A stretch of 64,000 bases of DNA, taken from Rickettsiales bacterium (GTDB taxonomy: Bacteria > Pseudomonadota > Alphaproteobacteria > Rickettsiales > JALZUV01). Each line of letters opens with the position of its first letter. Position 1 is the first letter of the stretch. Shown piece after piece: positions 9,083 through 29,238 of the stretch. The position numbers and the translations under genes were made by a program. The stretch is from contig JAQXAR010000025.1 of NCBI GenBank assembly GCA_029252805.1, forward strand, positions 90,425 through 154,424, written 5' to 3'. Below the pieces are notes generated by a model. The model did not search any database. It saw nothing but the letters and a program-made list of their open reading frames with translations, and was not told where the DNA came from.

Positions 9083-9222
9083 AAGTAATGCTGTGTTTCT
9101 TAAGAGTTAACTTAGTGTCTGAGTAACATTCTTATAGAAAAAAAATGAAGTAAAAATTAAGGTTTTATTAACGATTGAAGTAGGTTTTTTGAGATTTTAT
9201 GATCGACGAAAGGGGTGCGATT

Positions 9223-11381: not shown

Positions 11382-12482
11382 GTGGTTTTTTGGTTATATT
11401 TCGCGTATTATGTAGGGGTGGAAGAGTCTCAAAAGATAAAACCTGTCTCAAGCGCAGATGAGCCGGCAGCAAAGGCTGCCCCTTCACTCTATGAGAAAAA
11501 TAAGCTCCGCATTGCGGGCGTCTTAAATGGCTTTGGTGATATTGCGTTATTGAAGGATGGCTATACTGACGAGTTTGATGACAAAACGAAGCGGAAAGTG
11601 GATAAAACGCACCTGAAAGTATCCGGGTGGCTTTACACTCTTGGCGCGGCGGTGATTACCTTCTTTGGTTCGGTTAATAAAGATCAGCAAGTCAAAGACC
11701 TTTCCTATCGAACCGCAGAGTTCATGAAGCAAAAAACGGGTAGTTTAACGAATGACCTGCAATCGTCTAAAATTTTAAATCGCGAATCTGGCGTCATGGC
11801 TAAGATGGCGCGCGGGCTACGTCGTCATTCAGCACAAGCGATGTTATGGTGTTACACGCTAGGTGCGGGCGCGATGCTTGCCGGTGGTATCAAAGCGTAC
11901 CGCAAGCCGGGTGGAGATAAGCCGATTAGCGAAATTTTAGTGGGTGGGATGTCATTGCTAGTCAAAGCGGCTTCAATGCTATTGCCGGAAAAATCAACAA
12001 CGACGGATCCTGAGCAATCAAGAATCAAAGAGACGGGTATTATTGGCTGGATTAAAGAAAAGCCGATGCGCTTGTTTGGTTATGGCTCGATGCTGACGGA
12101 AGCATTTTGGGGCTACCGCGCTTATGAAAAGAAAAAAGCAGGTAAAGACTGGAAACTCGCCGCTGCAACAGGAGGGGCTTATGCGGCTTCCGATGTGGTG
12201 ATTGCGACGACAAATAAAGATGCGACCAATGCGATGGGTAGGCTTGATCAACAAGAGCAAGGCGATCTTGAAAATATGATCGCAGAAACCATTGCGCATC
12301 AAAGTGCAGAGAAGCAGGAGGCGCTTTCCCAAGAAGCGGCGACGTTCCTTGAGAAAGAAGCGGCGGTGAGTGGCAATGTAGATGAGTTGCGTCAGTCGAT
12401 TATGCAGCGTGTAGAGAAGCTCCAAGATAAAGCATGGGTAGATCGCAAGGTGGAAGAGCCTGCTATGGAGTTGCAAGTCTAA
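11382..12482 (+). CDS. hypothetical membrane protein (about 4 predicted TM segments, acidic coiled C-terminus)
   Basis: Long ORF with hydrophobic stretches (GWLYTLGAAVITFFG, MLWCYTLGAGAMLAGG, ILVGGMSLLVKAASMLL). There is no ATG near the 5' end, so candidate starts are GTG 11382 or GTG 11418 and the start is uncertain. Confidence 0.55.
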   Translation: MVFWLYFAYYVGVEESQKIKPVSSADEPAAKAAPSLYEKNKLRIAGVLNGFGDIALLKDGYTDEFDDKTKRKVDKTHLKVSGWLYTLGAAVITFFGSVNKDQQVKDLSYRTAEFMKQKTGSLTNDLQSSKILNRESGVMAKMARGLRRHSAQAMLWCYTLGAGAMLAGGIKAYRKPGGDKPISEILVGGMSLLVKAASMLLPEKSTTTDPEQSRIKETGIIGWIKEKPMRLFGYGSMLTEAFWGYRAYEKKKAGKDWKLAAATGGAYAASDVVIATTNKDATNAMGRLDQQEQGDLENMIAETIAHQSAEKQEALSQEAATFLEKEAAVSGNVDELRQSIMQRVEKLQDKAWVDRKVEEPAMELQV

Positions 12483-13837
12483 TCCGTTAAGTGTTTCATC
12501 GCTTTTGCAAAGGAAGCGCTAATTATCTCCCGTTTTTTGTGTCGACCCTGTTCGACCATTTTTGTGCCATTCACCCACACATCACGAATGCAGGATTTAT
12601 CGCCTGCGAAAATCCAGCTATTGAGCCAATTATCGTGTCGCTTCCCAATAAGCGTAGGGTGGTTCTCATCGAGTGAGGCGATATCGCAATAGTTTCCCAC
12701 CTTGATAGCGCCCATTGCCTGACCGAGCGCTTGTGCACCACCTGTAAGTGCCGCATCAAACAGTGCGCGTCCCGTCGCTTGATTATCCCCAGCGAGGCGA
12801 TTGCGGCCTAGATCGCGCAAACGTTGGCTATATTCGTAGCTGCGCAGTTCTTCGGCTAAGTCGATACGGATATGGCTGTCTGAACCGATGCCCCAGCGGC
12901 CCCCTACTTGTGCGTAATCCACTCCCTCAAAGATGCCATCACCTAAGTTAGCTTCGGTGATCGGGCATAGCCCTGCGACGGCTTTACTCTTTGCCATCAA
13001 TGCTAGTTCAGATGCATCCAAATGGGTCGCATGGACGAGGCACCAGCGCTCATCAACTGCGTGATGATCATAAAGCCATTGCACGGGGCGAGCGCCAGAC
13101 CAGCTAAGGCAATCATCCACTTCTTTGACTTGTTCGGCGATATGGATATGGACGGGGCCAGTTGGAGTAGCATTCAGCACATGATTGAGCGTTTCAGGGG
13201 TGACGGCACGTAGCGAATGCGGCGCAATGCCTACGGTATTTCGATCGTTAGGCAGAGCGTTACGGCACGTTTCGACTAATGTTAAAAATGCATCAGGATC
13301 ATTATGGAAGCGTTTCTGCGCGACTTGTGTCGGGGTGCCACCAAAGCCGCTATAGGCATAAAATACCGGCAATAAAGTTTGCGCTATGCCGGTGGTTTCG
13401 GCGGCATTCATCACTTGTTGCGCCATCTCTGTACGATTCTCATAAGCGCTGCCATCGGTTTGATGGTGCAGGTAGTGGAACTCTCCGACAGCCGTAAATC
13501 CGGCCTCCAGCATCTCGACATAAAGTTGTGCGGCGATGGCCTGTAGATCCTCGGGGCGCAGGCGCTCGACGAAGCGATACATCACTTCGCGCCATGTCCA
13601 GAAGCTATCGGTACGATCGGCGCTTGCCCATTCGCCGAGGCCTGCCATGGCGCGTTGAAACGCATGACTATGCAAATTCGCCATTCCTGCGACGCCAATA
13701 TGCCCATCAATACCGTTAGCAGGCTGGCCGCTATTGGCCGTAACGGCGGTGATTAAGCCTGTATTATCGGTTTCGATAAGGACATTTTCTGCCCAACCTT
13801 CAGGCAGTAAAAGATTTGTAAAAAACAGCTGGTTCAT
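12479..13837 (-). CDS. hutF: formimidoylglutamate deiminase
   Basis: Amidohydrolase-superfamily protein of 452 aa with 'NLHSHAFQRAMAGL' near the N-terminus and the typical HutF opening (LLLPEGW). Divergent from hutIHGU. Confidence 0.85.
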   Translation of the reverse strand: MNQLFFTNLLLPEGWAENVLIETDNTGLITAVTANSGQPANGIDGHIGVAGMANLHSHAFQRAMAGLGEWASADRTDSFWTWREVMYRFVERLRPEDLQAIAAQLYVEMLEAGFTAVGEFHYLHHQTDGSAYENRTEMAQQVMNAAETTGIAQTLLPVFYAYSGFGGTPTQVAQKRFHNDPDAFLTLVETCRNALPNDRNTVGIAPHSLRAVTPETLNHVLNATPTGPVHIHIAEQVKEVDDCLSWSGARPVQWLYDHHAVDERWCLVHATHLDASELALMAKSKAVAGLCPITEANLGDGIFEGVDYAQVGGRWGIGSDSHIRIDLAEELRSYEYSQRLRDLGRNRLAGDNQATGRALFDAALTGGAQALGQAMGAIKVGNYCDIASLDENHPTLIGKRHDNWLNSWIFAGDKSCIRDVWVNGTKMVEQGRHKKREIISASFAKAMKHLTD

Positions 13838-13846
13838 AAGGTCTAA

Positions 13847-13854
13847 CTATATAG
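13847..13854. promoter_or_regulatory. perfect 8-bp palindrome CTATATAG in the 28-bp hutF/hutI divergent intergenic region (candidate operator or shared promoter core)
   Basis: Read directly. It lies centrally between the hutF start (13837) and the hutI start (13866). Confidence 0.3.
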
Positions 13855-13865
13855 AATAATCCGAC

Positions 13866-15077
13866 ATGACAAACCCTGAATCTGTAGAAACATTATTCAC
13901 GCACGCCACCCTCGCCACGATGGCCGGTGACGCTGCCTATGGTTTGCTGCGTGATGCGGCGATTGGGGTGACGCAGGGCAAGATCGTGTGGATCGGTGAT
14001 GTGGCAGAGGCGCCCCCCGCGCAGCAAGTTGAAGACTGTGCCGGTAAGCTGATCACCCCCGCCTTGATCGATTGCCATACGCATCTGGTGCATGGCGGCA
14101 ATCGTGCCAAAGAATTTGAATTACGTTTGAACGGTGCCTCTTATGAGGAAATCGCCCGTAGTGGTGGCGGCATCCTCTCGACCGTGACGAAAACCCGCGC
14201 CGCATCGGAAGATGAGCTCGTGGCCACGGCGCTAAAACGTCTGGATCCTCTGATTGCCGAGGGGCTTGGCACGATTGAGATAAAATCTGGCTATGGTTTG
14301 GAGACTCAGAGCGAGTTGAAAATGCTTCGCGCCGCCCGTCGATTGGCAAAGGAGCGCCGAGTTCGCGTTAAAACGACTTTCCTAGGCGCACATGCGCTGC
14401 CCCCGGAATTTGCGGATAGAGCCGATGATTACATTCGTTTCGTTTGCGACGAAATGCTGCCTGCCGCCCATGCGGAAGGTTTAGTCGATGCGGTGGATGG
14501 GTTTTGCGAGAATATCGCCTTTTCGCCTGCGCAGATGGAGCGTGTTTTTGCCAAAGCGCAGGAACTTGGGCTTCCTATTAAGCTACATGCCGAGCAGCTC
14601 TCGGATTTAGGCGGTGCCGTCATGGCTGCGGGTAAAGGTGCATTATCGGTCGACCATTTGGAATATTTGAAGCCGGAAGATGCTTCGATTTTGGCTGAAA
14701 ATAATACAGTAGCCGTGTTGCTACCTGGCGCTTTTTATACCTTGCGTGAAACGAAATTACCGCCAATTGAGGCGTTGCGTAAAGCCGGTGTTTCCCTAGC
14801 GATTGCGACCGATAATAATCCCGGTTCATCGCCGATCTCATCGTTGCTTTTGACCATGAACATGGCCTGCACCTTATTTCGACTGACGCCAGAGGAAGCT
14901 TTAGCGGGTTGCACTCGTGCTGCCGCTCAAGCGCTCGGTTTGCAGGATGAGATCGGCACATTGCAAGTGGGTAAAAATGCAGAATTAGCGATTTGGGATG
15001 TGAGTGAACCAGCCGAGCTTATCTATCCGCTCGGTGGGAGCTCATTGGTAAAGCGCGTAATAGGAGAGAATCGATGA
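13866..15077 (+). CDS. hutI: imidazolonepropionase
   Basis: 403 aa. Metal-binding 'IDCHTHLV' and overall HutI-like sequence ([17 protein letters not shown]). First gene of the hut operon. Confidence 0.92.
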
Positions 15078-16606
15078 CATTAACCCTAACCCCCGGCTCC
15101 GTGAGTCTTGTACAGTTAGAGGAAATCTACCGTAGCGACAGGCTGTCCGTTTGCTTACATGAAGCCTGCATTCCGGCGATTGAAAATTCAGCGGCGATCG
15201 TTGCGAAAGCGGCGGCAGGTGACGTGCCTGTTTATGGCGTGAATACTGGATTCGGTAAATTAGCCAGCACGCGCATCGCGCCCGAAGATACGACGAAGCT
15301 GCAGCGTAATCTTATCCTCTCGCATTGCTCAGGTGTGGGGGAGCCGCTCGATGCACCGGTGGTACGGTTAATCATGGTGCTTAAACTTATCTCGCTAGGG
15401 CGTGGAGTTTCTGGTGTGCGATTGGAGATTACTCGACAAATTGAGAAAATGCTGGAGCGTGATGTCGTGCCGATGATTCCTGCTAAAGGGTCGGTCGGTG
15501 CCTCCGGCGACTTAGCGCCACTTGCGCATATGGCTGCTGTTATGATGGGCGAGGGCGAAGCGTTCTATGAAGGTCAGCGTTTATCCGGTGCGGATGCGCT
15601 GAAGGCTGCTGGTTTAGAGCCTGTAGTGCTGGGTGCAAAAGAAGGCTTGGGTCTGATTAACGGCACGCAAGTTTCGACTGCACTGGCGCTTATTGGCCTG
15701 TTCGATGCATGGCATTTGGCGCAACATTCTTTGGTGACGGGCGCGCTATCAACCGATGCGGCGATGGGTGCAGCGGCTCCCTTTAGAACCGAAATCCATG
15801 AGTTTCGTGGTCATAAAGGACAGCAAGATGCTGCCAGCTTCCTGCGTCATGTGTTGGACGGATCAGAGATTCTCACAAGTCATTTGCAGGGCGATGAGCG
15901 AGTGCAAGATCCGTATTGTATTCGTTGTCAACCGCAGGTGGTGGGAGCCTGCGTCGACCTGCTAAGGCAAGTCAGCAAAACGCTGGAAATTGAGGCGAAT
16001 GCCGCCACCGATAATCCGCTCGTTTTTGATGATGGTACGATTGTATCGGGCGGTAACTTCCATGCAGAACCAGTGGCTTTTGCTGCTGATCAAATTGCGC
16101 TAGCGATAGCGGAATTAGGCTCAATCGCGCAACGTCGAGTCGCACTTTTGGTCGACCCTACTTTGAGCTTTGGTCTACCCGCATTCCTCAGCCCTGAACC
16201 GGGAGTGAATTCCGGCTATATGATTGCGGAGGTTACGACGGCGGCATTAATGTCTGAAAATAAACAAAAAGCCTCGTCTTGTTCGGTCGATTCAACCCCG
16301 ACTTCAGCCAATCAGGAAGATCATGTTTCGATGGCGTGCCATGCAGCTTACCGGCTTATCAGTATGAATCAGAATCTCGCGCATATCATTGGTATCGAAC
16401 TGCTCACAGCGGTTCAGGGGATTGAATTTCGCGCGCCATTGCAAACCAGTCCAACATTACGCAAAATCATTGATAGATTGCGCCGCAAAATCCCAACCTT
16501 GGCGCAAGATCGTTATATGGCGAATGATTTAGAGGAAGCGGCACAGATTATTTCCAGCGGTGAATTGCTCGCTGGTTTGGACGTGCAAGGAATGTTGACG
16601 CTATGA
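15074..16606 (+). CDS. hutH: histidine ammonia-lyase
   Basis: MIO-forming '[16 protein letters not shown]' motif. 510 aa. ATGA start/stop overlap with hutI. Confidence 0.95.
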
Positions 16607-17409
16607 ATCCTGTCGAGATAAAAGAAGGCAGCTGCCCGATAATCCTTGCCATGCCGCATAGCGGAACGTGGTTGCCGCAAGAGATATTTGCAGGCTTAAA
16701 TGAGATCGGTCAAAAACTACGCGATACGGATTGGCATATTGACCGGCTTTACGATGGGCTTTTGCCTGAGGCGAGCATCGTCAAAGCGAATTTCCACCGT
16801 TACGTGATTGATGCGAATCGCGATCCTGAAGGCGTGAGCCTCTATCCCGGGCAGAATACGACCACCCTTTGCCCGACCATTGATTTCGATGGCGCACCGA
16901 TTTGGCATGCGGGTAAAGAACCTGATATGGCGCAGGTTAAGCATCGTACCGAACAGTTCCACGCACCGTATCATAAGGCGTTACGTCAAATGATCGAAGT
17001 AACAAAAGCGAAATATGGCTTTGCCATTCTCTATGATTGTCATTCCATTCGCTCCGAAGCACCGTTCTTATTTGAAGGTGTATTACCCGTGCTCAACATT
17101 GGCACGAATGACAGTAAGAGCTGTTCGTCTGAAATTGAAAAACTCGTAACGGAAGCTTGCGCCGATTCATCATTTTCTCAAGTACTCAATGGTCGCTTCA
17201 AAGGCGGGTGGACGACGCGGTATTATGGCAATCCAAGCGTCGATGTTCATGCGATTCAAATGGAATTGACTCAAGCTGCTTACATGCAAGAAACTGACCC
17301 TTGGGCGTATCTGCCTGAACGTGCGGAAACCTTACGTCAAACATTACAAACATTACTCTTAAACCTTAGGAATTTTGATTATGTCTCAAACCATGAAGCA
17401 TCTGCGTAA
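16603..17409 (+). CDS. hutG: N-formylglutamate amidohydrolase (formylglutamate deformylase)
   Basis: 268-aa FGase-family protein ([12 protein letters not shown]..., DANRDP, YDCHS). ATGA overlap with hutH. Its position matches hut operons that use the HutF/HutG route. Confidence 0.85.
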
Positions 17410-19060
17410 AAATACGCGTGATATCCGTGCGGCGCGCGGGTCTGAACTCAGCGCGAAGAGCTGGCTGACGGAAGCGCCTTTGCGCATGTTGATGAATAAC
17501 CTTGATGCGGAAGTGGCAGAGAATCCGCATGAACTCGTGGTGTATGGCGGTATTGGCCGTGCCGCGCGCACATGGAAAGATTACGACCAAATCGTCGCTA
17601 GTTTGCAGGCACTGGAAGAGAATGAAACGCTTATCGTGCAATCAGGCAAGCCGGTTGGTGTGTTCCAAACGCATAAAGATGCGCCGCGTGTGTTAATCGC
17701 CAATTCCAACCTCGTGCCAGAATGGGCGAATTGGGATCACTTTAACGAACTCGATAAAAAAGGCCTAATGATGTACGGCCAAATGACAGCGGGCTCGTGG
17801 ATTTATATCGGCACGCAAGGCATTGTACAGGGCACCTATGAGACCTTTATGGAAGCCGGGCGTCAGCATTATGATGGCGATCTAACAGGTAAATGGATTC
17901 TCACCGGCGGTCTTGGCGGCATGGGCGGCGCGCAGCCACTCGCGGCGGTGATGGCAGGCGCCTGTTGCCTCGCCGTGGAATGTAACGAAGACAGTATCGA
18001 TTTTCGTCTACGCACACGTTACGTCGATGAAAAAGCCAAAACGCTCGACGAGGCGTTGGAAATGATCAATCGTTGGACCGCAGCGGGTGAGGCGAAGTCG
18101 GTAGGCTTGCTTGGCAATGCAGCGGATGTATTCACAGAAATTGCGAAGCGCGAAATCCGTCCCGATATTGTGACCGATCAAACCTCCGCGCATGATCCAA
18201 TTAATGGTTATCTGCCGCAAGGTTGGACGATGGCGCAGTGGAAAGAAAAGCGCGAGACAGATCCAAAGGCGGTGGAAGTTGCCGCACGCGCTTCCATGAA
18301 AAACCAAGTGGCAGCGATGCTTGAATTTTGGAATCGTGATATCCCGACCCTCGATTACGGCAATAATATTCGCCAAGTCGCGCTGAATGAAGGGTTGGAG
18401 AATGCGTTCGATTTCCCTGGTTTTGTGCCGGCTTATGTCCGTCCACTTTTCTGTCAAGGTATTGGGCCATTCCGCTGGGTTGCTCTTTCAGGAGATCCAG
18501 AGGATATTTACAAAACCGATGCGAAGGTGAAAGAGCTTCTGCCCGATAATAAACATCTGCATAACTGGTTGGATATGGCACGCGAGCGTATCGACTTCCA
18601 AGGGCTTCCAGCCCGCATCTGTTGGGTGGGTTTGGGTGATCGTCACCGCCTAGGGCTTGCTTTTAACGAGATGGTAGCCTCAGGCGAATTATCCGCCCCC
18701 GTCGTAATTGGCCGTGATCATTTGGATTCCGGCTCCGTCGCCTCGCCCAATCGTGAGACAGAAGCGATGAAAGATGGTTCAGATGCGGTTTCGGACTGGC
18801 CCTTATTAAATGCGCTACTTAACTGCGCATCAGGCGCGACATGGGTATCACTGCATCATGGTGGTGGCGTGGGGATGGGTTATTCGCAGCATTCCGGTAT
18901 GGTGATTTGCGCCGATGGTTCCGAGGATGCTGCCCGCCGTATTGAGCGTGTTTTATGGAATGATCCGGCGACCGGTGTGATGCGTCACGCCGATGCTGGC
19001 TACGAGATCGCCCGTGATTGTGCGAAAGAAAAAGGCCTTAAACTGCCAGCAATTTTATAA
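17381..19060 (+). CDS. hutU: urocanate hydratase
   Basis: '[13 protein letters not shown]' NAD-binding block and highly conserved urocanase sequence throughout. ATG 17381 is preferred over the TTG at 17375. Confidence 0.95.
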
Positions 19061-19070
19061 GGAAAAGAGA

Positions 19071-20252
19071 ATGGTTTCGATTGGAACTCCGCTATCGCTC
19101 ACTGCGAAAAAAGTGCTGCTTTGCGGCTCTGGAGAGTTAGGCAAAGAAGTCGCGTTAGAACTTCAGGCGATGGGCGTAGAAGTGATCGCGCTTGATCGTT
19201 ATGAGAACGCGCCCGCGATGCAAGTGGCGCATCGAAGTCACGTGCTTTCGATGCTGGATGGTGCCGAACTTCGCCGCATCATTGAACTCGAAAACCCTGA
19301 TTTGATTGTGCCGGAAATTGAGGCGATTGCGACCGATACATTGGCTGAGTTGGAGGGTGAAGGCTATCAAGTCATCCCAACCGCGCGTGCAACGCAACTT
19401 ACCATGAACCGCGAAGGAATTCGCCGTTTGGCCGCAGAAGAACTAGGTCTCAAAACCTCACCTTATCAATTTGTGAGTAATGAGGTCGATTTTAAAGCGG
19501 CGGTGCAAGAGATTGGCATTCCTTGTGTCATCAAGCCAGTGATGAGCTCCTCTGGCAAAGGCCAGAGCGTCATCCGCGATGCAACTTCCATCCAAAAAGC
19601 ATGGGATTATGCGAGCGAAGGTGCGCGTGGTGGCGCAGGTACGGTGATTATCGAAGGCTTCGTGCCGTTCGATTACGAAATTACACTCCTCACCGTTCGC
19701 CATAAAGACGGAACGAGCTTTTGCGCCCCCATCGGTCACGCCCAAGAGGATGGCGACTATCGCGAAAGCTGGCAACCACAGGCTATGTCAGTCGAAGCAT
19801 TGGAAGAAGCAGAGCGTATCGCCGGTGCCGTCACTGCTGGTCTCGGCGGACAAGGTGTGTTTGGCGTAGAGCTGTTCGTGCAAGGCGATGATGTGTATTT
19901 TAATGAAGTGTCACCGCGCCCGCATGATACGGGGCTGGTAACGCTTATGTCGCAGAACCTCTCTGAATTCGCACTGCATGTGCGTGCGATTTTAGACCTA
20001 CCAATTCCCGAAATCCGTCAAATGGGCCCCTCCGCTTCCAGCGTGATTCTGGTGGAAGGCGAGTCGCAGCAGCTAAGCTTTAGCAGTCTTGATATAGCAC
20101 TGGCGCAGCCGGACACGATGCTGCGCCTCTTTGGCAAACCTGAAGTGAAAGGTCGTCGTCGTATGGGCGTGGCGATCGCACAAGCTGAAACCATCGAGCA
20201 AGCGCGAGCGAAAGCGAATGCTTGCGCACAAGCAGTTGGCACAGAGCTTTAA
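19071..20252 (+). CDS. purT: formate-dependent phosphoribosylglycinamide formyltransferase (GAR transformylase 2)
   Basis: ATP-grasp protein with the typical PurT N-terminus '[17 protein letters not shown]' plus '[14 protein letters not shown]'. ATG at 19071 has the purine-rich 'ggaaaagaga' just upstream, 10 nt after the hutU stop. Confidence 0.9.
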
Positions 20253-20290: not shown

Positions 20291-21376
20291 ATGAGCAAAA
20301 AACCCGCATGGGATCAATATGGTAGCTACTTGCATGTCGATAAAATACTAGGCGCGCAGCACCCGCAAAGCACCGCTGCCGGAAATGAAGTGCATGATGA
20401 AATGCTTTTCATCCAATTTCATCAGATCTATGAGTTGTGGTTTAAGCAAATTCTTTTCGAGCTGGATGATGTTCAAGGCCGTTTCGCCGCTGAGAAAATG
20501 AATGAATCCGATATGCAGCCCATCGCGATGTATTTGGACCGTGTCGTCAAAATCTTGACACAAATGGAAAGCATGATTGATGTGTTGGAGACGATGCCAT
20601 CACAGTCTTTCACCGATTTCCGCGAATATCTCAGCACTGCCTCTGGGTTCCAGAGCCTGCAATTCCGCCTCATCGAGACTCGCTTAGGGTTGCTTCGTAA
20701 AGACCGTATTCCTGTTTTTCACGGAGAATTTGATTCGGATTTATTAAAGCAAAGCCAAGCCGCGATTGCGAAAGCGGAAAGTTCTCCAAGCCTCTATGAT
20801 CAACTTGATAGCTGGCTGAGCCGTACGCCATTTGTTGATTTGGGTGGCTATAACTTCTGGGATGATTACCGCGATGCGGTTTACACCATGCTTGATGATA
20901 AAGCCAAGCAAGCCGAACAGAATTTAGAAGGTGATGGTTTAGAGAATGAATTAAAAGCGCTCGAGCGTAGCCGTCAAAAATTTGAAGGTATTTTCGATGC
21001 AGAGAAAAATGAAAAGAGCGAATGGCGCATGTCATATAAGGCGCTCCAAGCCGCGCTTTTCGTTACGATTTACCGTGAGCAACCGGTGCTACAAGCGCCA
21101 TTCGGGCTGTTAAAACATATTATGGATGTCGATGAACTACTTGCTCGCTGGCGTTTCCGTCATGCCTTAATGGTGCAACGTATGGTCGGTATGGGCATGG
21201 GAACGGGGGGCTCATCAGGCTATGAATATTTGCTACGCACCGTGGCTGAGCATCGTATCTTTACTGATATATTTGCGCTGAATGCGTATTTAATTCCATC
21301 GAAATCACTGCCGGAGCTTCCGGCGGAAATTAGTCAACAAATGCATTACCATTATCATGCAACGGGAGCGAAATAA
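20291..21376 (+). CDS. kynA: tryptophan 2,3-dioxygenase
   Basis: 361-aa TDO-like sequence ('YLHVDKILGAQHPQS...HDEMLFIQFHQIYELWFKQ'; 'RWRFRHALMVQRMVG'). Confidence 0.88.
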   Translation: MSKKPAWDQYGSYLHVDKILGAQHPQSTAAGNEVHDEMLFIQFHQIYELWFKQILFELDDVQGRFAAEKMNESDMQPIAMYLDRVVKILTQMESMIDVLETMPSQSFTDFREYLSTASGFQSLQFRLIETRLGLLRKDRIPVFHGEFDSDLLKQSQAAIAKAESSPSLYDQLDSWLSRTPFVDLGGYNFWDDYRDAVYTMLDDKAKQAEQNLEGDGLENELKALERSRQKFEGIFDAEKNEKSEWRMSYKALQAALFVTIYREQPVLQAPFGLLKHIMDVDELLARWRFRHALMVQRMVGMGMGTGGSSGYEYLLRTVAEHRIFTDIFALNAYLIPSKSLPELPAEISQQMHYHYHATGAK

Positions 21377-22156
21377 ATGACTCAGAACTTAAGTGGAAAA
21401 CGTGCCATCGTCTGCGGTGCCAGCAAAGGCATTGGCCGCGCGACTGCCATTGAACTCGCCAGCCAAGGCGCGAGCGTCACCCTGCTTGCTCGTAACGAAG
21501 CGGCCCTTGAGGCGGTGAAAACCAGCCTCGCAGGGGGAGGCCATCATGTGCTCGTGGCGGATGCCGCTGACACGGCTGGTTTGACTGCAAAGGTCAGCGC
21601 GCATGTGGCGCAACATGGTCCTATCCATATTCTGGTCAATAATAGCGGCGGGCCTGCGGCAGGGCCAGTCAATCAAGCCACGTCTGAACAGCTTCTGGGT
21701 GCCTTCACGCAGCATTTACTGGGTAATCATGCGATGATGCAAGCGGTGCTTGAGGGCATGAAAGCAGAAGGCTATGGCCGTATTATCAATGTGATTTCAA
21801 CCTCGGTCAAAATGCCGCTTAAGGGGTTGGGTGTTTCCAACACGATCCGTGGTGCGGTGGCCAATTGGGCGAAAACGCTGGCGGGTGAAGTGGGAGGTTT
21901 CGGCATTACGGTCAATAACGTATTGCCCGGTGCAACCGATACCGATCGTCTTGCTGAGATATTTGAAGGCAAGGCCGCTAAGCTCGGCAAAACCGTTGAG
22001 CAAGTGGTCGAATCTGAAAAAGCGATTATCCCTGCCGGTCGTTTTGGCGCGCCTGAAGAATTGGCGTCTGCCGTTGCTTTCTTGGCGAGCCCTGCGGCGG
22101 CTTATATTAACGGTATTAATGTGCCAGTTGATGGCGGGCGCACGGGCTGTCTTTAA
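21377..22156 (+). CDS. atypical short-chain dehydrogenase/reductase-family protein (catalytic YxxxK replaced by SxxxR)
   Basis: Rossmann motif 'VCGASKGIGRAT'. By-eye alignment to FabG ('IINIGSVVGTMGNAGQANYAAAK') gives 'IINVISTSVKMPLKGLGVSNTIR', so Tyr->Ser and Lys->Arg. The start codon directly abuts the kynA stop (TAAATG). Confidence 0.8.
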   Translation: MTQNLSGKRAIVCGASKGIGRATAIELASQGASVTLLARNEAALEAVKTSLAGGGHHVLVADAADTAGLTAKVSAHVAQHGPIHILVNNSGGPAAGPVNQATSEQLLGAFTQHLLGNHAMMQAVLEGMKAEGYGRIINVISTSVKMPLKGLGVSNTIRGAVANWAKTLAGEVGGFGITVNNVLPGATDTDRLAEIFEGKAAKLGKTVEQVVESEKAIIPAGRFGAPEELASAVAFLASPAAAYINGINVPVDGGRTGCL

Positions 22157-23618: not shown

Positions 23619-24044
23619 ATGTCAAACCAAGTTGTTCATAATTCAAGCACTGCGCCGGAGCCTGTTGGCGCTTATCCGCATGCGCGTCGTGTGGGCGAAT
23701 TATTGTTTCTATCCGGTGTAGGGCCGCGCCAAAAAGGTACAAAAGTCATTCCTGGTGTCACGTTGGACGAAAGTGGAAAGATTGTCGATTATGATATTGA
23801 AGCACAATGCCGCAGCGTGTTTAATAATGTGCGCGATATTTTGGAATCCTCTGGTGCGAAGTGGGAAGATTTGGTCGATGTGACCGTGTTTCTCACCAAT
23901 ATGGATGATGATTTCAAAGCGTATAATGCGCTATGGAAAGAATATTTCGGCGAGAACCCGCCATGCCGTACGACTCTTGAGATTAACAAACTGCCAACGC
24001 CCATCGCTATTGAGCTAAAATGCGTTGCAGTGATGAAGGATTAA
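23619..24044 (+). CDS. RidA/YjgF-family protein, probable 2-aminomuconate deaminase
   Basis: 141-aa YjgF/RidA-like sequence ('PVGAYPHARRVGELLFLSGVGP', 'PCRTTLEINKLPTPIAIELKCVA'). The known AmnD/NbaF deaminases belong to this family. Confidence 0.7.
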   Translation: MSNQVVHNSSTAPEPVGAYPHARRVGELLFLSGVGPRQKGTKVIPGVTLDESGKIVDYDIEAQCRSVFNNVRDILESSGAKWEDLVDVTVFLTNMDDDFKAYNALWKEYFGENPPCRTTLEINKLPTPIAIELKCVAVMKD

Positions 24045-24047
24045 GCC

Positions 24048-24566
24048 ATGAGCTACTTGCCACCCATCAACCTTCAAGCGTGGATTGAAGAGCATCGCGA
24101 CCAGTTAAAACCGCCTGTTTGCAATAAGATGGTGTATGAGGTAGGTGATTTTATCATTATGGTTATTGGCGGTCCTAACACTCGCAAAGATTACCATGAC
24201 GATCCTGGCGAGGAGTTCTTCTATCAGTTAGAAGGCGATATGATCTTGCGCGTGATGGAAGACGGAAAGCCGAAAGATGTGACCATCAAGCAAGGTGAAA
24301 TATTCTTGCTTCCGCCGCATATTCATCACTCGCCGCAGCGCTTTGAGAATACCGTTGGCCTCGTGATCGAGCGTAAGCGTTTTGAGGGCGAACTTGATGG
24401 TTTCGCCTGGTATTGTGATGAGTGTCACAGCAAGATTCACGAAGAATTTGTGCCGCTCAAAAGCATTGTCGATGATTTACCTCCTTTGTTTGATCGTTTT
24501 TGGAATAGCGAAGAAAATCGTACTTGTGGCGAGTGTAATCACATCATGCCGCCTAAAGGATCTTGA
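24048..24566 (+). CDS. nbaC: 3-hydroxyanthranilate 3,4-dioxygenase
   Basis: Cupin core 'YHDDPGEEFFYQLEGDM...LLPPHIHHSPQR' plus a C-terminal rubredoxin-like CxxC...CxxC pair ('CDECHSK...CGECNH'), as in bacterial HAO. Confidence 0.9.
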   Translation: MSYLPPINLQAWIEEHRDQLKPPVCNKMVYEVGDFIIMVIGGPNTRKDYHDDPGEEFFYQLEGDMILRVMEDGKPKDVTIKQGEIFLLPPHIHHSPQRFENTVGLVIERKRFEGELDGFAWYCDECHSKIHEEFVPLKSIVDDLPPLFDRFWNSEENRTCGECNHIMPPKGS

Positions 24567-25789
24567 TGAATTATCCGTATCAACCGACTGAGAAATGGGA
24601 TGTGCATACGCATACGACCCTCTCGCCGGATACGTATGAGAAGCTTGCGCGCTTTACGCATTATAGCGAGTTCGTGCGTATTCAGGCGCATGCCAGCAAG
24701 CCATGCTGCGCTAGTATGATTAATAACACCGGCGATACGATGCGTGAGATTGAGGCGAATGCCTATGAAGCCGCCGTGCGCGTTGATGAATGCGATGTTT
24801 TTGGCGTCTCGGTTCAGGTGCTTTCACCGACGCCGATGATGATTCCTGATTATGTCGATAACGGGCAAGATGCGGCAGAGATTTGCAGAATCCTCAATGA
24901 TGATAATGCGGCGACGGTCGCGAAATTCCCGAAACGTTTTGTCGCACTCGGCGCGCTGCCGATGCGTGCACCAGAGCTTGCCATAAAAGAGATGCGCCGT
25001 ATTCGTGACGAGCTCGGCATGCCGGGTGTGGAAATCCTCTCCAACATTAATGGCGAGGAGCTGGACGATCCAAAATTCTTTGCCATCTTTGAGGCGGCGG
25101 CCGAGTTGGGTATGGCGATTTTCATCCACCCATGGGGTGGGTTTATGTCACCGACGGAACCGAAACTCAAAGCCCGTATGCATGCCTCGCGTAACTGGCG
25201 ACCATGGCTGATTGCGATGGGAATGGAAACCGCACTTGCGTTTGATGCGATGCGTAGTGGCGGTGTGCATGAGCGTTTGCCGCATTTACGCGTGCTCTAT
25301 GCGCATGGCGGCGGGGTGTTCCCCAGTTTGTTAGGGCGCTTGGAGCATGGTGCCTATTGCCGCCCTGATCTCTTCACGCAGGCTTCTAATCAGAACCCGT
25401 ATGATGCGGTGCGTGATTGTCAAATTTACACCGATACGCTCACCCATAATCCATGGGTGTTAGAGCTGCTTATCCATACGCTTGGTGCAAGCTGGATCGC
25501 CATGGGTTCTGACTATCCCTACCCGCTAGGCGAGGTCGAACCGTTTAATGCCGATAGCCTAAAAGATGCCAAAGGTAATAGCTGTCCCTATCCACAAGCG
25601 AAGGGCATTTATCCCGGTCATATGATCGAGCACCTCCCATCGACCGATGCAGATAGAGAAGCCGCGTGGAGTCATTTCCATTGGCTGGCCCGCGATAATG
25701 CTGATGGCATGCGTCGTTTGCCATTGTTAACGGGCGAACAAAAACAACGGATGCTGTCTGGCACGGCAAAAGAGTGGTTAGGGCTATGA
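24566..25789 (+). CDS. nbaD: 2-amino-3-carboxymuconate-6-semialdehyde decarboxylase (ACMSD), long form of about 407 aa
   Basis: Amidohydrolase_2-type 'WDVHTHT' HxH motif, 'VQVLSPTP', 'GSDYPYPLGE'. The start overlaps the HAO stop as TGATG. Relative to the roughly 335-aa ACMSDs I remember, it carries an insertion of about 45 aa near the C-terminus. Confidence 0.82.
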   Translation: MNYPYQPTEKWDVHTHTTLSPDTYEKLARFTHYSEFVRIQAHASKPCCASMINNTGDTMREIEANAYEAAVRVDECDVFGVSVQVLSPTPMMIPDYVDNGQDAAEICRILNDDNAATVAKFPKRFVALGALPMRAPELAIKEMRRIRDELGMPGVEILSNINGEELDDPKFFAIFEAAAELGMAIFIHPWGGFMSPTEPKLKARMHASRNWRPWLIAMGMETALAFDAMRSGGVHERLPHLRVLYAHGGGVFPSLLGRLEHGAYCRPDLFTQASNQNPYDAVRDCQIYTDTLTHNPWVLELLIHTLGASWIAMGSDYPYPLGEVEPFNADSLKDAKGNSCPYPQAKGIYPGHMIEHLPSTDADREAAWSHFHWLARDNADGMRRLPLLTGEQKQRMLSGTAKEWLGL

Positions 25790-26616
25790 AATTAAATCTC
25801 GAAATTGCAGGCGAAAGCTTCACCGCGAATCTGAATAATCCATTAGATATTACTATCCCCGTGAAATTCGATGGGGCAGGGCTAACCGCTTTCGGCGCGC
25901 CCGCAGCCAGCGGTGTGGCTTATGCTGCAGGTGATTATATTGGTGATGTGCGGGCGGGCGGAAGTTGTAACTGTGAGGTGCTCACCTTCGCGCCGCATTT
26001 GCATGGCACCCATACGGAATGTGTCGGTCATATTTCCAATGCGCGAATATCAGTCGCAGATGTCTTTAAAGGCGGCTTGGTGCCGGCGAGTTTGGTGACG
26101 ATTGCTCCCGTTTCTCCCAACGATACAGATGAAACTTACAGTGTAGAGCTTGCGGCCGATGATAGGTTAATTACTGCGGAGAGCTTGAAAGAAACCCTCA
26201 TTGCTGACGCTCCTCGCAATGACGGTTTCTTAAAAGCATTAATCATTCGTACCACCCCCAACGCACTCGCCAAACAAAGCGGCGATTATGCTTGCGATAT
26301 GCCGCCCTTCTTCACGCTCGAAGCAATGGGTCTCATTGTTGAACTCGGCGTGCAGCATGTCTTGATTGATACACCTTCGGTTGACCGACTGGATGATGAC
26401 GGAAAACTCACCAATCACCATATCTATTGGGGTATCCCAGAAGGCAGCCACGCGGTAGATGCCGCTAATCCTTCACCCAAAACTATCACCGAACTTATCT
26501 ATGTGGTGGATGCGATTAAAGACGGAAACTATTTGCTCGATTTGCAAGTCGCAGCCTTTATGATGGACGCGGCACCCAGCCACCCAATTCTCTATGAGGT
26601 AACTAAAAATGACTGA
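25786..26616 (+). CDS. cyclase-family protein, probable kynurenine formamidase (KynB-like, divergent metal motif)
   Basis: 'HLHGTHTECVGH' sits where the cyclase family has HxGTHxDxPxH. 'LIIRTTPN' and 'VLIDTPSVD...NHH' match later cyclase-fold blocks. ATGA overlap with ACMSD. Confidence 0.65.
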   Translation: MKLNLEIAGESFTANLNNPLDITIPVKFDGAGLTAFGAPAASGVAYAAGDYIGDVRAGGSCNCEVLTFAPHLHGTHTECVGHISNARISVADVFKGGLVPASLVTIAPVSPNDTDETYSVELAADDRLITAESLKETLIADAPRNDGFLKALIIRTTPNALAKQSGDYACDMPPFFTLEAMGLIVELGVQHVLIDTPSVDRLDDDGKLTNHHIYWGIPEGSHAVDAANPSPKTITELIYVVDAIKDGNYLLDLQVAAFMMDAAPSHPILYEVTKND

Positions 26617-27886
26617 CTATCGCACCGATAAAGCCTTTGCCGTTGAGCTGGATGCACAGGATCCACTCAAAAACTATCGTGATGAATTCTATATTGCGCA
26701 GGCGCATGGCAAGGAGTCGATTTACTTTTGCGGCAACTCGCTCGGCCTGCAACCCAAGCGTACTGAAAGTGCCATTATGCAAGAGCTGAAAGATTGGCAG
26801 AAGCTCGGCGTAGAAGGGCACATGCATGCGAAAAATCCATGGCTGCCCTACCATGAGTTTTTGGCGGAAAGCTATGCTAAGATCGTCGGGGCAAAGCCAT
26901 CCGAAGTAGTGGCGATGAACACGCTCAGTGTGAACCTGCATTTGATGATGGTGTCATTTTATCGCCCCACGGCGCAGCGTCATAAAATTGTGATTGAAAA
27001 TAACGCCTTCCCGTCCGATCAATATGCCGTACAATCTCAAATTAGCTTCCATGGTTTTGATCCAGAAACTTCGTTAATTGAAATGCAGCCACGAGATGGC
27101 CAAACAACCTTACAGACGCAAGATATTCTGGATTTAATAGAACGTGAAGGCGACAGTATCGCGCTCATTATGGTGGGTGGCGTAAATTATTATACAGGCC
27201 AACTTTTCGATATGGCGGCGATTACCAAAGCCGGTCATGCAAAAGGTGCTCAAGTCGGTTTCGATCTTGCCCATGCGGCGGGGAATGTGCCACTCAAATT
27301 GCATGAGTGGGGTGTCGATTTTGCGTGCTGGTGTAGTTATAAATATCTGAATTCTGGCCCCGGTAGTGTGTCAGGTTGTTTTGTGCATGAACGTCATGCG
27401 CAAGCCGACCTTCCACGTTTTAACGGCTGGTGGGGGCATGATAAAGAAACTCGTTTTAAGATGGGTCCGAACTTTAAAGCCATCGGTGGCGCAGAAAGCT
27501 GGCAGCTCTCGAACCCGCCGATTTTATCGCTTGCCGCAGTCAAAGCCTCACTCGAAATTTTCGATGAAGTGGGAATGGATAAATTACGCAAAAAGAGCTT
27601 AAAAATAACCGGTTATATGGAGTTCCTACTTGATAGCTTGAAGTGTGATGCTTTCGATATTCTAACCCCTCGCGATACGAATCAGCGCGGTGCACAGCTT
27701 TCCATCGTTGTGAACGAAAATGGCAAAAAGGTGTTTGAAGCGCTCGAAGCGGCCGGCGTGATTTGCGATTGGCGCGAACCGAATTGCATTCGCGTAGCAC
27801 CGATGCCGCTCTATAATAGCTACGCTGATGTGTATCGTTTTGTTGAAATATTTGCGCAGGAATTAAATATAAAGGTGGCCGCATGA
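26609..27886 (+). CDS. kynU: kynureninase
   Basis: PLP-lysine block 'CWCSYKYLNSGPGS' and an N-terminus typical of kynureninase ('DPLKNYRDEFYI'). 8-nt overlap with the upstream gene. Confidence 0.93.
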   Translation: MTDYRTDKAFAVELDAQDPLKNYRDEFYIAQAHGKESIYFCGNSLGLQPKRTESAIMQELKDWQKLGVEGHMHAKNPWLPYHEFLAESYAKIVGAKPSEVVAMNTLSVNLHLMMVSFYRPTAQRHKIVIENNAFPSDQYAVQSQISFHGFDPETSLIEMQPRDGQTTLQTQDILDLIEREGDSIALIMVGGVNYYTGQLFDMAAITKAGHAKGAQVGFDLAHAAGNVPLKLHEWGVDFACWCSYKYLNSGPGSVSGCFVHERHAQADLPRFNGWWGHDKETRFKMGPNFKAIGGAESWQLSNPPILSLAAVKASLEIFDEVGMDKLRKKSLKITGYMEFLLDSLKCDAFDILTPRDTNQRGAQLSIVVNENGKKVFEALEAAGVICDWREPNCIRVAPMPLYNSYADVYRFVEIFAQELNIKVAA

Positions 27887-29238
27887 GTCAGGAAATTCAT
27901 GTTGTAGGTGGCGGCTTGGTTGGTTCGCTTGCTGCCGTCATGTTAGGCAATGAAGGCTTTCAAGTTAAGCTCTATGAGCGCCGCCCTGATATGCGTAAGG
28001 TGGATATTGCCGCCGGTCGTTCGATCAATTTGGTGCTGACATCACGTGGGATACAAGCGTTGGAACGTGTAGGTTTAAAAGAGAAAGCGATGGAACTTGC
28101 GATTCCAGTCAGTGCGCGGATGCTGCATGATGTGGAAGGCCAGACCAATCGAGTACCTTACGGTCAGCATGAGGGCGAGGTGATTAATTCCGTCTCACGT
28201 GGCTTGCTCAATAAGCTGCTACTAGAAGCAGCAGATGCGCACGATAATGTTGAGGTGCTGTTCCATCGCACCTGTACCGATTATGATATTAAAGCGAAAA
28301 CGCTGACTTTTCATAATGATCAGACAAATGCGTCTGAAACCGTGCCGGTGGAACGAGCCATGGGCACGGACGGTGCCTTCTCGGCCATGCGCAAGGCGAT
28401 GTTGAATCAGGTAGTTAATTTTGATTATTCGCAAAATTTCCTAAGCCATGGCTATAAAGAACTCGTCATTGCTGCTAATGTGGATGGTAGCCATCCGATC
28501 GACCCTAATGCTCTGCATATCTGGCCGCGCAAAGATTTTATGTTTATGGCGCTAGCGAATCTGGATGGTAGCTTCACCTGCACTCTCTATATGGCGCATG
28601 AGGGTGAGAATAGCTTTGATAGTTTGAAGACGGAGCAAGAGGTTGAAGGTTTCTTTCAGCAATATTTCCCCGATGCTTTACGAATGATGCCGGATTTAAA
28701 GCAGGAGTATTTTGAGAATCATGCAGGCTCAATGGTGACGGTGAAGTGTTTCCCATGGAGAGTTGGCGAGCAGTCGATTTTGCTAGGAGATTCGTCTCAT
28801 GCGATCGTCCCCTTTTTCGGGCAAGGGATGAATTCAGGCTTTGAAGATTGCTTTGAGTTGGGACGCTTGTTGGATAAGCATGGCAGTCACCTTGATTGGG
28901 ATGCACTATTTGACGAGCTGCAATATATTCGAAAACCCAATACCGATGCCATTGCGGATATGGCACTTGAGAACTTTGTGGAGATGTCTGAGACAACGGC
29001 GGATCCAAAATTCCAGCTCAAAAAAGAAATTGGATTCGAGCTTGAGAAGCGTTACGAAGGCAAATTCATCCCGCGCTATTCGATGGTGGTGTTTCATCCA
29101 GAAATTTCCTATTCGGAGGCTCAGCACCGTGGTGCGATTCAGTTCGAAATTCTTGAGGAGTTGAGTGACGGTATTGAAAGCGTCGAGCAAGTCGATTGGG
29201 CTAAAGCCGCTCGATTGATAGTGAAGTTGGAAGTCTGA
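27883..29238 (+). CDS. kmo: kynurenine 3-monooxygenase (FAD-dependent)
   Basis: FAD fingerprint 'VVGGGLVGSLAAVMLGNEGFQVKLYERRPD', plus 'GDSSHAIVPFFGQGMNSGFEDC'. ATGA overlap with kynU. Confidence 0.9.
   Translation: MSQEIHVVGGGLVGSLAAVMLGNEGFQVKLYERRPDMRKVDIAAGRSINLVLTSRGIQALERVGLKEKAMELAIPVSARMLHDVEGQTNRVPYGQHEGEVINSVSRGLLNKLLLEAADAHDNVEVLFHRTCTDYDIKAKTLTFHNDQTNASETVPVERAMGTDGAFSAMRKAMLNQVVNFDYSQNFLSHGYKELVIAANVDGSHPIDPNALHIWPRKDFMFMALANLDGSFTCTLYMAHEGENSFDSLKTEQEVEGFFQQYFPDALRMMPDLKQEYFENHAGSMVTVKCFPWRVGEQSILLGDSSHAIVPFFGQGMNSGFEDCFELGRLLDKHGSHLDWDALFDELQYIRKPNTDAIADMALENFVEMSETTADPKFQLKKEIGFELEKRYEGKFIPRYSMVVFHPEISYSEAQHRGAIQFEILEELSDGIESVEQVDWAKAARLIVKLEV

Follow-up and report, generated by a model that had tools for sequence, protein, structure and literature searches.

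In a stretch of 64,000 nucleotides from a Rickettsiales bacterium (GenBank assembly GCA_029252805.1, contig JAQXAR010000025.1), referred to below as the window, a gene for an SDR (short-chain dehydrogenase/reductase) lies within a compact operon of kynurenine-pathway genes. The operon and the features around the start of the SDR gene, the subject of this study, are as follows.

20291-21376, plus strand: kynA, tryptophan 2,3-dioxygenase (TDO), step 1 of the pathway (Pfam Trp_dioxygenase, 313 bits)
21364-21368, plus strand: Shine-Dalgarno-like GGGAG, 8 nt 5' of the SDR ATG and within the end of kynA (direct read)
21377-22156, plus strand: SDR gene, candidate 2-oxohex-3-enedioate reductase; uninterrupted open reading frame (ORF) of 259 aa
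22160-23599, plus strand: 2-aminomuconate-6-semialdehyde dehydrogenase (AMSDH-like aldehyde dehydrogenase, ALDH; Pfam Aldedh, 549 bits)
23619-24044, plus strand: RidA-family protein, candidate 2-aminomuconate deaminase (AMD; Pfam Ribonuc_L-PSP, 93 bits)
24048-24566, plus strand: 3-hydroxyanthranilate 3,4-dioxygenase (HAO; NCBIfam NF009763, 268 bits, over the cut-off)
24563-25789, plus strand: ACMS decarboxylase (ACMSD), animal-like type (Pfam Amidohydro_2)
25774-26616, plus strand: kynurenine formamidase (KFA), cyclase family (Pfam Cyclase, 43 bits)
26609-27886, plus strand: kynureninase (KYNU; NCBIfam TIGR01814, 504 bits)
27883-29238, plus strand: kynurenine 3-monooxygenase (KMO; Pfam FAD_binding_3 and place in the conserved cluster)

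The SDR gene extends from the ATG at 21377-21379 to the TAA at 22154-22156. Its start codon begins on the very next base after the kynA stop codon (TAA, 21374-21376; 0-nt gap), and a 3-nt spacer, GCG, separates its stop codon from the ATG of the aldehyde dehydrogenase gene at 22160; both junctions (21376/21377 and 22156/22160) had been read in the same way in the first-pass annotation of this DNA. The GGGAG motif inside the kynA end suggests translational coupling of the SDR to kynA, and the genes 3' of AMSDH overlap or are spaced by at most 19 nt. The best NCBIfam match of AMSDH is 2-hydroxymuconic semialdehyde dehydrogenase (546 bits, under the cut-off of 693), and ACMSD is closer to the human enzyme (phmmer E-value 1e-70) than to ACMSD of Pseudomonas fluorescens (1e-34). 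As far as can be predicted from the sequence, the nine genes account for each step that leads from tryptophan to 2-aminomuconate and for the deamination of the latter, and they include one SDR, which is the sole oxidoreductase of the operon without an assigned step.

A genome scan with one genome per species yielded at least 545 relatives of the SDR. The best 80 of these (56-74% identity), together with three look-ups (70-88%), form a set of 83 SDR loci; the encoded proteins were aligned by MAFFT with four solved relatives and FabG of Escherichia coli. One of the 83 sequences turned out to be a canonical SDR paralogue, the remaining 82 being orthologues. The protein features considered below, numbered by residue of the window SDR, are as follows.

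21416-21436, plus strand: cofactor motif G14-A-S-K-G-I-G20; G14, G18 and G20 invariant in 83 sequences
21491-21493, plus strand: Arg39 after strand β2, the NADP(H)-selecting position in SDRs; invariant (83/83)
21713-21715, plus strand: His113, where classical SDRs have the tetrad Asn and BacG has Lys113; His in 82/83
21797-21850, plus strand: active-site segment S141-T-S-V-K145-x-P147 ... S154-N155-T-I-R158; Ser154 at the Tyr position, Arg158 at the Lys position
21947-22006, plus strand: Arg191 and a lid insertion of about 11 residues relative to FabG; common to AerF, BacG, APE0912 and the Burkholderia SDRs

The SDR matches only SDR and NAD-binding Pfam families (adh_short_C2, PF13561, 143 bits; PF00106, 123 bits), no NCBIfam model scores over its cut-off, and in public records its relatives are named no more specifically than "SDR family oxidoreductase" or "3-oxoacyl-ACP reductase". 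The AlphaFold2 (AF2) model has a pLDDT of 91.9 and alternating β and α elements. In fold and cofactor site the protein is a classical SDR, having the GASKGIG motif (residues 14-20), described as intact in the first-pass annotation and indeed so, and an NNAG-type motif, N88-N89-S-G91, with NNxG invariant. The Arg39 equivalent is Arg in 5va8, APE0912, AerF and BacG, and Thr in FabG.

The active site departs from the classical pattern. Residues N110, S138, Y151 and K155 of FabG lie opposite H113, S141, S154 and R158 of the SDR (codons TCA at 21797 for Ser141, TCC at 21836 for Ser154, and CGT at 21848 for Arg158), and the latter four are invariant in 82/82 orthologues, the classical Asn-Ser-Tyr-Lys tetrad with its YxxxK motif being absent. 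The same invariance is seen for T142, S143, K145, P147, N155, W164, K166, and R191. The canonical paralogue, which is the sole sequence of the 83 with Asn at position 113, retains N/S/Y/K in the tetrad columns of the same alignment, and hence the alignment is sound; with FabG in the alignment and the paralogue as an internal control, an alignment artefact was ruled out as the source of the Ser and Arg assignments. Thus, the earlier reading of Ser for the catalytic Tyr and Arg for the catalytic Lys stands, as a proper alignment restores neither residue. About 67 positions are invariant or show a single exception across the 83 sequences, among them the cofactor motif and all of the active-site loop, which indicates strong purifying selection on a pocket.

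The best PDB matches of the SDR in phmmer are 5va8, 5idx, and 5vps from Burkholderia (E-values 2e-47 to 7e-43), followed by 2z1n, that is, APE0912 (5e-38). All four carry S...SNxxR, their phmmer alignments being in accord with the residue assignments given above, and the SDR thus belongs to the Ser-Ser-Arg subgroup, which we take to be the CDD family cd05344, "BKR_like_SDR_like". Members of this subgroup have the same Ser, Ser and Arg at the Ser, Tyr and Lys positions and bind NADP(H) in crystals, the window SDR being 36-38% identical to the solved structures. Unlike the kynurenine-linked clade, the structures from Aeropyrum and Burkholderia have no assigned function or pathway context, and they lack the signature of His113/Asn117/His118, Trp164 and Lys166 that is invariant or nearly so in that clade. 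The first-pass annotation was therefore right that SxxxR is non-canonical with respect to YxxxK, but the site is a known subgroup trait and not peculiar to this gene, the Ser-Ser-Arg triad having been described for APE0912 of Aeropyrum pernix, according to review text (Yamamura et al., 2008).

Paralogues with 40-45% identity that have S...SNGVR but lack His113 occur in a second setting, e.g., on plasmids of Martelella (NZ_CP054860.1, L170:6075-7777) and Alloyangia (NZ_CP022195.1, L171:6075-7750), and 180 plasmid records hold such relatives. In both clusters the paralogue overlaps the stop codon of a DHDPS-family gene by one base and is accompanied by an Asp/Glu racemase-family gene, an amidohydrolase, an amino-acid ABC transporter, and a GntR regulator. 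This second context of Ser-Ser-Arg SDRs points to 2-oxo-acid chemistry, as far as the gene families suggest.

Structural comparison leads to another pair of relatives. The fifth PDB match of the SDR is 6jh7, AerF of Microcystis, whose nearest solved homologue is YwfH/BacG. AerF acts in aeruginosin Choi biosynthesis (PDB 6jh7, 6jha, 6jhb) and BacG/YwfH in Bacillus bacilysin biosynthesis (PDB 3u49, 3u4c). A Foldseek search with the AF2 model places AerF with NADPH and 4-hydroxyphenylpyruvate (6jhb) at TM 0.93 and YwfH/BacG (3u4c) at TM 0.92, and ranks 1-11 are taken by AerF, the Burkholderia trio with NADP(H), and YwfH, all above any FabG. Both AerF and BacG use NADPH to reduce a C=C bond that is in conjugation with a 2-oxo acid, and BacG is said to work by conjugate hydride addition at the far end of the olefin. 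AerF, BacG, and the window SDR share the SDR fold, the NADPH type, the lack of Tyr at the canonical catalytic position, the equivalents of R39, K145, P147 and R191, and the 11-residue lid insertion absent from FabG; moreover, the AerF/BacG reaction is the same functional-group change as the conversion of 2-oxohex-3-enedioate to 2-oxoadipate. In contrast, AerF and BacG operate in prephenate-derived antibiotic biosynthesis, while the context of the SDR is catabolic; a prephenate decarboxylase and a cupin isomerase of the BacA/BacB or AerD/AerE type were not seen by Pfam among the operon genes and 20 other window ORFs, and the proposed substrate of the SDR, unlike theirs, is an open-chain dicarboxylate. 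By analogy, the SDR may resemble AerF/BacG in its mode of action, although it is not a member of their group in the strict sense.

The SDR is conserved together with genes of the kynurenine pathway. The SDR loci are spread over Bacteroidota, Gamma- and Alphaproteobacteria, Bdellovibrionota/Oligoflexia, Ignavibacteria, and Calditrichaceae, the best 80 relatives belonging to Flavobacteriaceae, Saprospiraceae, Chitinophagaceae, Cytophagales, Kangiella, Pleionea, Microbulbifer, Permianibacter, alphaproteobacterial metagenome-assembled genomes (MAGs), Bdellovibrionota/Oligoflexia, Ignavibacteria, and Calditrichaceae. According to tblastn, at least one kynurenine gene is present in the flanks of 70 out of 83 SDR loci (HAO in 53, AMSDH in 50, ACMSD in 42, AMD in 33, kynureninase in 28, and KMO in 27). 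The three relatives with 70-88% identity retain the order SDR-ALDH-RidA-HAO-ACMSD-formamidase-kynureninase-KMO within unrelated flanks. At least five gene orders are observed in the set: (TDO)-SDR-AMSDH-AMD-HAO-ACMSD-KFA-KYNU-KMO; KYNU-KMO-AMD-AMSDH-SDR-HAO-ACMSD in Flavobacteriaceae; ACMSD and HAO divergent from SDR(-AMSDH); SDR-AMSDH alone; and TDO-SDR. Across these arrangements the SDR remains associated with the lower module (HAO, ACMSD, AMSDH, AMD), its closest partners being AMSDH (immediately downstream in 28 loci) and HAO (adjacent in 27). AMD is present in 30 out of 34 SDR loci with a complete lower module, and thus deamination probably precedes reduction. All-versus-all clustering of ORFs from the 83 loci revealed no other partner family, such as gcdH, 2-oxoadipate dehydrogenase, or a tautomerase, shared across lineages; the other recurrent neighbours are lineage-specific housekeeping genes only.

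The reverse search, starting from ACMSD, agrees with this: at least 23 out of 59 ACMSD relatives on contigs of at least 10 kb share the contig with the SDR (18 by an inferred match to the list of SDR relatives, loci L016 and L026, and look-ups L175-L177). The SDR-linked ACMSDs belong to three subtypes that differ in identity to human ACMSD: 55-65% in Kangiella, Microbulbifer, and Saprospiraceae, 37-41% in the group of the window, and about 26% in Flavobacteriaceae. Hence the co-occurrence of the SDR with lower-pathway genes across phyla and rearranged orders, envisaged in the first-pass annotation, is borne out.

The known bacterial 3-hydroxyanthranilate/2-nitrobenzoate route (the nba type of Burkholderia, Cupriavidus, and Pseudomonas) continues through AMD, 4-oxalocrotonate decarboxylase, hydratase, aldolase, and acetaldehyde dehydrogenase. 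It shares with the window operon HAO, ACMSD, AMSDH, a RidA-type AMD, and the intermediate 2-oxohex-3-enedioate; the nba-type loci differ in having MhpD/E/F-type genes, no Ser-Ser-Arg SDR, and another ACMSD subtype, the window ACMSD being nearer to the human one. With E. coli MhpD (decarboxylase/hydratase), MhpF (acetaldehyde dehydrogenase), and MhpE (aldolase) as probes, tblastn gave only noise in the window at E<=1, and the FAA_hydrolase and HMGL families are absent from the Pfam scans of 29 window ORFs (the operon and 20 others). Lower meta-cleavage genes elsewhere in the window are thereby ruled out, in line with the earlier observation that it encodes no 4-oxalocrotonate decarboxylase, hydratase, or aldolase.

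Homologues of MhpD, MhpF, or MhpE are found in none of the 83 SDR loci (up to 10 kb on each side). In a comparison set of 80 metagenomic loci anchored on ACMSD of the P. fluorescens type, MhpD is present in 30, MhpF in 18, and MhpE in 21, typically in the order AMSDH-MhpD-MhpF-MhpE-MhpD-AMD-HAO-ACMSD, whereas the Ser-Ser-Arg SDR is present in none (0/80). Four SDR matches in these loci were rejected as canonical YxxxK proteins of another family, about 7 kb away. The difference between 0/83 and 30/80 is significant (Fisher's exact test, p = 2e-11). Thus, at the level of the locus, the SDR and the MhpD/E/F-type genes exclude each other, as had been expected.

Conversion of 2-aminomuconate to 2-oxoadipate takes one deamination and exactly one two-electron reduction. 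With one reduction needed and no other oxidoreductase of the operon left unassigned, this supports the SDR as the reductase. We consider it likely that the SDR reduces 2-oxohex-3-enedioate (4-oxalocrotonate) to 2-oxoadipate with NADPH and is the last enzyme of a nine-gene operon leading from tryptophan to this compound. The idea of a reductive step after 2-aminomuconate, put forward in the first-pass annotation, is supported by comparative evidence, namely, the alignment, the synteny, the exclusion pattern, the C=C-reducing relatives, and the linkage to HglS discussed below.

According to this proposal, TDO, formamidase, KMO, kynureninase, HAO, ACMSD, and AMSDH would convert tryptophan to 2-aminomuconate, which the RidA-type deaminase would hydrolyse to 2-oxohex-3-enedioate, the keto form of 4-oxalocrotonate; the same AMD product is given by Colabroy & Begley, as cited in a preprint (bioRxiv 10.64898/2026.06.05.730449). 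With the C3=C4 bond in conjugation with the 2-oxo group, the SDR would then transfer hydride from NADPH to C4, and protonation at C3, possibly by His113, would yield 2-oxoadipate. For the conserved residues we infer that Ser141, Ser154, and Arg158 polarise the 2-oxo/carboxylate end and stabilise the enolate, and that Lys145 and/or Arg191 bind a carboxylate. From 2-oxoadipate the route would continue to glutaryl-CoA metabolism or, in lineages with HglS, to 2-hydroxyglutarate, and would stand in place of the decarboxylase/hydratase/aldolase branch of Burkholderia and Pseudomonas. Somewhat less firmly, we are inclined to think that bacteria of several phyla use a third route past 2-aminomuconate, in which a RidA-type deaminase and a Ser-Ser-Arg SDR ene-reductase lead to 2-oxoadipate.

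One lineage offers an independent pointer. In locus L176, a 261-aa gene (6494-7279) lies directly upstream of the SDR, followed by AMSDH-AMD-ACMSD-KFA-KYNU-KMO, and in locus L011 a gene 83% identical to it (9207-9995) is paired with the SDR, 5 nt apart (the spacing in the two loci is 5-10 nt). The L176 product matches PF07063 (HGLS, "2-oxoadipate dioxygenase/decarboxylase"; 96 bits, cut-off 25), 3lho (4e-60), and the rice hydroxyglutarate synthase FLO7 (3e-28). The DHxAFR, NH, and EFA positions are conserved with respect to FLO7 and are read as the metal-binding His, the 2-oxoadipate-binding Arg, a second His, and Glu, presumably with the same roles. HglS is reported to be strictly specific for 2-oxoadipate, and the same reaction is predicted for all family members with that Arg; HglS is known from lysine catabolism, and tryptophan catabolism is not mentioned in the same paper (Thompson et al.). 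Although confined to one lineage, the linkage thus independently indicates that these clusters may end in 2-oxoadipate. The HglS genes of kynurenine clusters are short (261-262 aa; DUF1338).

Two or three further contigs suggest HglS together with the SDR or ACMSD, and a 67% identical HglS (L180) was set aside as having no kynurenine link, which limits the HglS link to a narrower clade. In the related locus L178, with HglS at 10001-10786 (L179:7828-8613), HAO is divergent from HglS-AMSDH, and AMD-ACMSD-KFA-KYNU lies 5 kb away, which shows that HglS is tied to the pathway and that the SDR is not always nearby. Between HglS-AMSDH and AMD-ACMSD, L178:13340-14908 encodes a 522-aa protein with an N-terminal domain without a Pfam match and a canonical YxxxK SDR domain, represented by two separate genes in L172:1846-3407. 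This adh_short gene was ruled out as an orthologue of the SDR, being a canonical YxxxK SDR fusion, and may be a non-orthologous replacement or unrelated. A further observation comes from L177:14926-18423 (minus strand), where, in this one locus only, a fused TPP/POR/DUF6537 gene (1165 aa) lies convergent to the end of the kynurenine operon; its product resembles indolepyruvate- or 2-oxoacid:ferredoxin oxidoreductases and, judging by its domains, is a conceivable 2-oxoadipate consumer.

Several points weigh against the proposed reductase function. The exclusion of the meta-cleavage genes refers to loci (up to 10 kb on each side) and not to whole genomes. The SDR is not found within 10 kb in the similar clusters L173, L174, and L178/L179 (L172 is ambiguous), the L178/L179 clusters having HglS beside AMSDH with no Ser-Ser-Arg SDR in that range, and 12 to 13 of the 83 SDR orthologues lie amid unrelated genes. 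The adjacency of HglS and the SDR is seen in a single lineage (79-84% identical HglS) and could also be compatible with the SDR acting after HglS. HglS was not found in the window or in most SDR-bearing clusters, and no gene for a 2-oxoadipate-consuming enzyme was found in the window. As for the relatives, identity to AerF (36%) is close to that to FabG (35%), the range for AerF and BacG is 31-36%, and BacG ranks under FabG in phmmer; with identity no better than to FabG, homology by itself is a weak basis for assigning the function. Where BacG and AerF have the Lys113-Tyr117 pair, the SDR has His113-Asn117, and the canonical Lys position is occupied by Arg158 in the SDR and by Asn158 in AerF/BacG, so that the proton-transfer machinery is not that of BacG/AerF; the catalytic set of BacG is reportedly Lys113-Tyr117...Ser155-Asn158.

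As an example of an SDR orthologue apart from kynurenine genes, in an Oligoflexia MAG (L035:10807-13451) the SDR is followed by ORFs that, on visual inspection, resemble those for L-aspartate oxidase (NadB) and quinolinate synthase (NadA) of the alternative NAD pathway.

Other functions are to be weighed in this light. That the SDR performs another redox step on a pathway-related 2-oxo acid, 2-hydroxy acid, or semialdehyde seems unlikely to us. The candidate steps are the reduction of 2-oxoadipate to 2-hydroxyadipate, the oxidation of D-2-hydroxyglutarate to 2-oxoglutarate after HglS, and the reduction of ACMS or AMS as a safety valve. Most SDRs are indeed carbonyl/alcohol oxidoreductases, the location next to HglS would fit an enzyme acting on the HglS product, and the SNxxR paralogues beside DHDPS-family genes in unrelated amino-acid catabolic clusters hint at broader 2-oxo-acid chemistry. 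However, most SDR clusters, including that in the window, lack HglS, and a role after HglS cannot explain the conservation; the acid/base Tyr of carbonyl reduction is absent in 82/82 orthologues, and the characterised Tyr-less relatives reduce C=C and not C=O. Besides, without C=C reduction these clusters, which have no meta-cleavage genes, would have no route from 2-aminomuconate to 2-oxoadipate.

Quite unlikely, in our estimate, is that the SDR reduces 2-aminomuconate itself, as the 2-imino-3-ene tautomer, and hence is a true 2-aminomuconate reductase, a bacterial analogue of the metazoan ASPDH/AMR; the product would be an amino acid or 2-iminoadipate, the latter hydrolysed to 2-oxoadipate. 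The imine tautomer and the 2-oxo-3-ene substrate are isoelectronic, AMSDH, the maker of 2-aminomuconate, is the commonest immediate neighbour of the SDR, many loci have the SDR with HAO or AMSDH and no AMD in the flanks, and an activity converting 2-aminomuconate with NAD(P)H to 2-oxoadipate and NH3 in liver extracts is mentioned in the preprint (bioRxiv 10.64898/2026.06.05.730449). On the other hand, AMD accompanies the SDR in 30/34 complete lower modules, where the deaminase would compete for the substrate, the eukaryotic reductase and deaminase are reportedly mutually exclusive, and the SDR fold is unrelated to ASPDH. Finally, the absence of both canonical Tyr and Lys, the existence of non-catalytic SDR-fold redox sensors (review text), and the 12 to 13 orthologues not beside kynurenine genes would fit an SDR with no catalytic role in tryptophan breakdown, be it a hitch-hiker, an NADPH-binding regulator or scaffold, or an inactive relic, but this is very improbable, as a hitch-hiker would not be kept in place across several phyla with at least five gene orders among them, about 67 near-invariant positions speak for strong purifying selection on the pocket, and the related Tyr-less proteins are active enzymes.

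Reduction of 2-oxohex-3-enedioate by the SDR can be compared with the corresponding step in eukaryotes. The first-pass annotation had taken the animal step to yield 2-oxoadipate through a gene not firmly assigned; this is superseded by a preprint of June 2026, which assigns ASPDH with 2-aminohex-3-enedioate as the product. ASPDH/AMR is the metazoan 2-aminomuconate reductase, a member of the aspartate dehydrogenase family (bioRxiv 10.64898/2026.06.05.730449). Like the proposed function of the window SDR, it is an NAD(P)H-dependent reduction just after AMSDH, in place of the decarboxylase route; unlike the SDR, the enzyme has an unrelated fold, takes 2-aminomuconate without deamination, and is reported to be mutually exclusive with the deaminase, while the SDR type co-occurs with AMD. 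Fungi have AMD, and the fungal step after the deaminase is left open by the preprint (bioRxiv 10.64898/2026.06.05.730449). Aspergillus 3-hydroxyanthranilate clusters are syntenic with an SDR gene, ATEG_10008, that has "low homology to characterized proteins" (PMC7842363, Fig. 5).

In a literature search that left out most subscription journals, we did not come across any account of a bacterial enzyme that reduces 2-aminomuconate, 4-oxalocrotonate, or 2-oxohex-3-enedioate, nor of an SDR in such clusters. It appears that the enzyme scaffold and the Ser-Ser-Arg triad are known, and the pathway variant, the function, and the kynurenine context have not been previously described. For about 60 years, metabolic maps have shown the link from the kynurenine pathway to 2-oxoadipate and glutaryl-CoA as an arrow without a gene, and the SDR is a concrete, widespread candidate in bacteria for an enzyme that forms 2-oxoadipate directly from the deaminated intermediate. 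Cultured carriers exist (Kangiella, Microbulbifer, Psychroserpens, Winogradskyella, Lacinutrix, Pleionea, Dawidia), and hence the question is directly testable. If the proposal is true, one nine-gene operon takes tryptophan to 2-oxoadipate, with HglS extending it to 2-hydroxyglutarate in some lineages. The orphan Ser-Ser-Arg SDR subgroup would acquire its first physiological function and substrate class, the fungal step after AMD a template, and the annotations "SDR family oxidoreductase" and "3-oxoacyl-ACP reductase" would be corrected. Pathway reconstruction would also change for marine Bacteroidota and Gammaproteobacteria, in which the tryptophan pathway otherwise seems to be a dead end.

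Some observations concern other genes of the operon and the rest of the window. The window TDO is long (361 aa) and reaches only 173 bits with TIGR03036, the bacterial equivalog (cut-off 391), compared with 313 bits against the general Pfam model; with a low score for the former and a good one for the latter, it is a divergent subtype. The last 80 or so residues of the window ACMSD (330-408) align to neither human nor P. fluorescens ACMSD. A scan of 12-31.5 kb for promoters and terminators was uninformative, the number of sites not being above that in shuffled sequence. About 10 kb downstream of the operon, at 39838-41598 (minus strand), lies a gene for a 586-aa acyl-CoA dehydrogenase with an Acyl-CoA_dh_C extension, which is not of glutaryl-CoA dehydrogenase size; the window holds no further candidate for metabolism beyond 2-oxoadipate. 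According to Pfam, the genes of the operon and of 20 other window ORFs are all of the kynurenine, hut, or polysaccharide kind. Directly upstream of the kynurenine operon are the hut genes and purT, and downstream of it DUF485 and SSF transporter genes; hutI, hutH, an N-formylglutamate amidohydrolase-type FGase gene, and hutU occupy 12479-20252 of the window and 1091-8875 of L005 (the 88% relative), purT being present in both, and the hut genes are rearranged in L175:1-4838. Together, the hut and kynurenine genes look like an amino-acid catabolic island.

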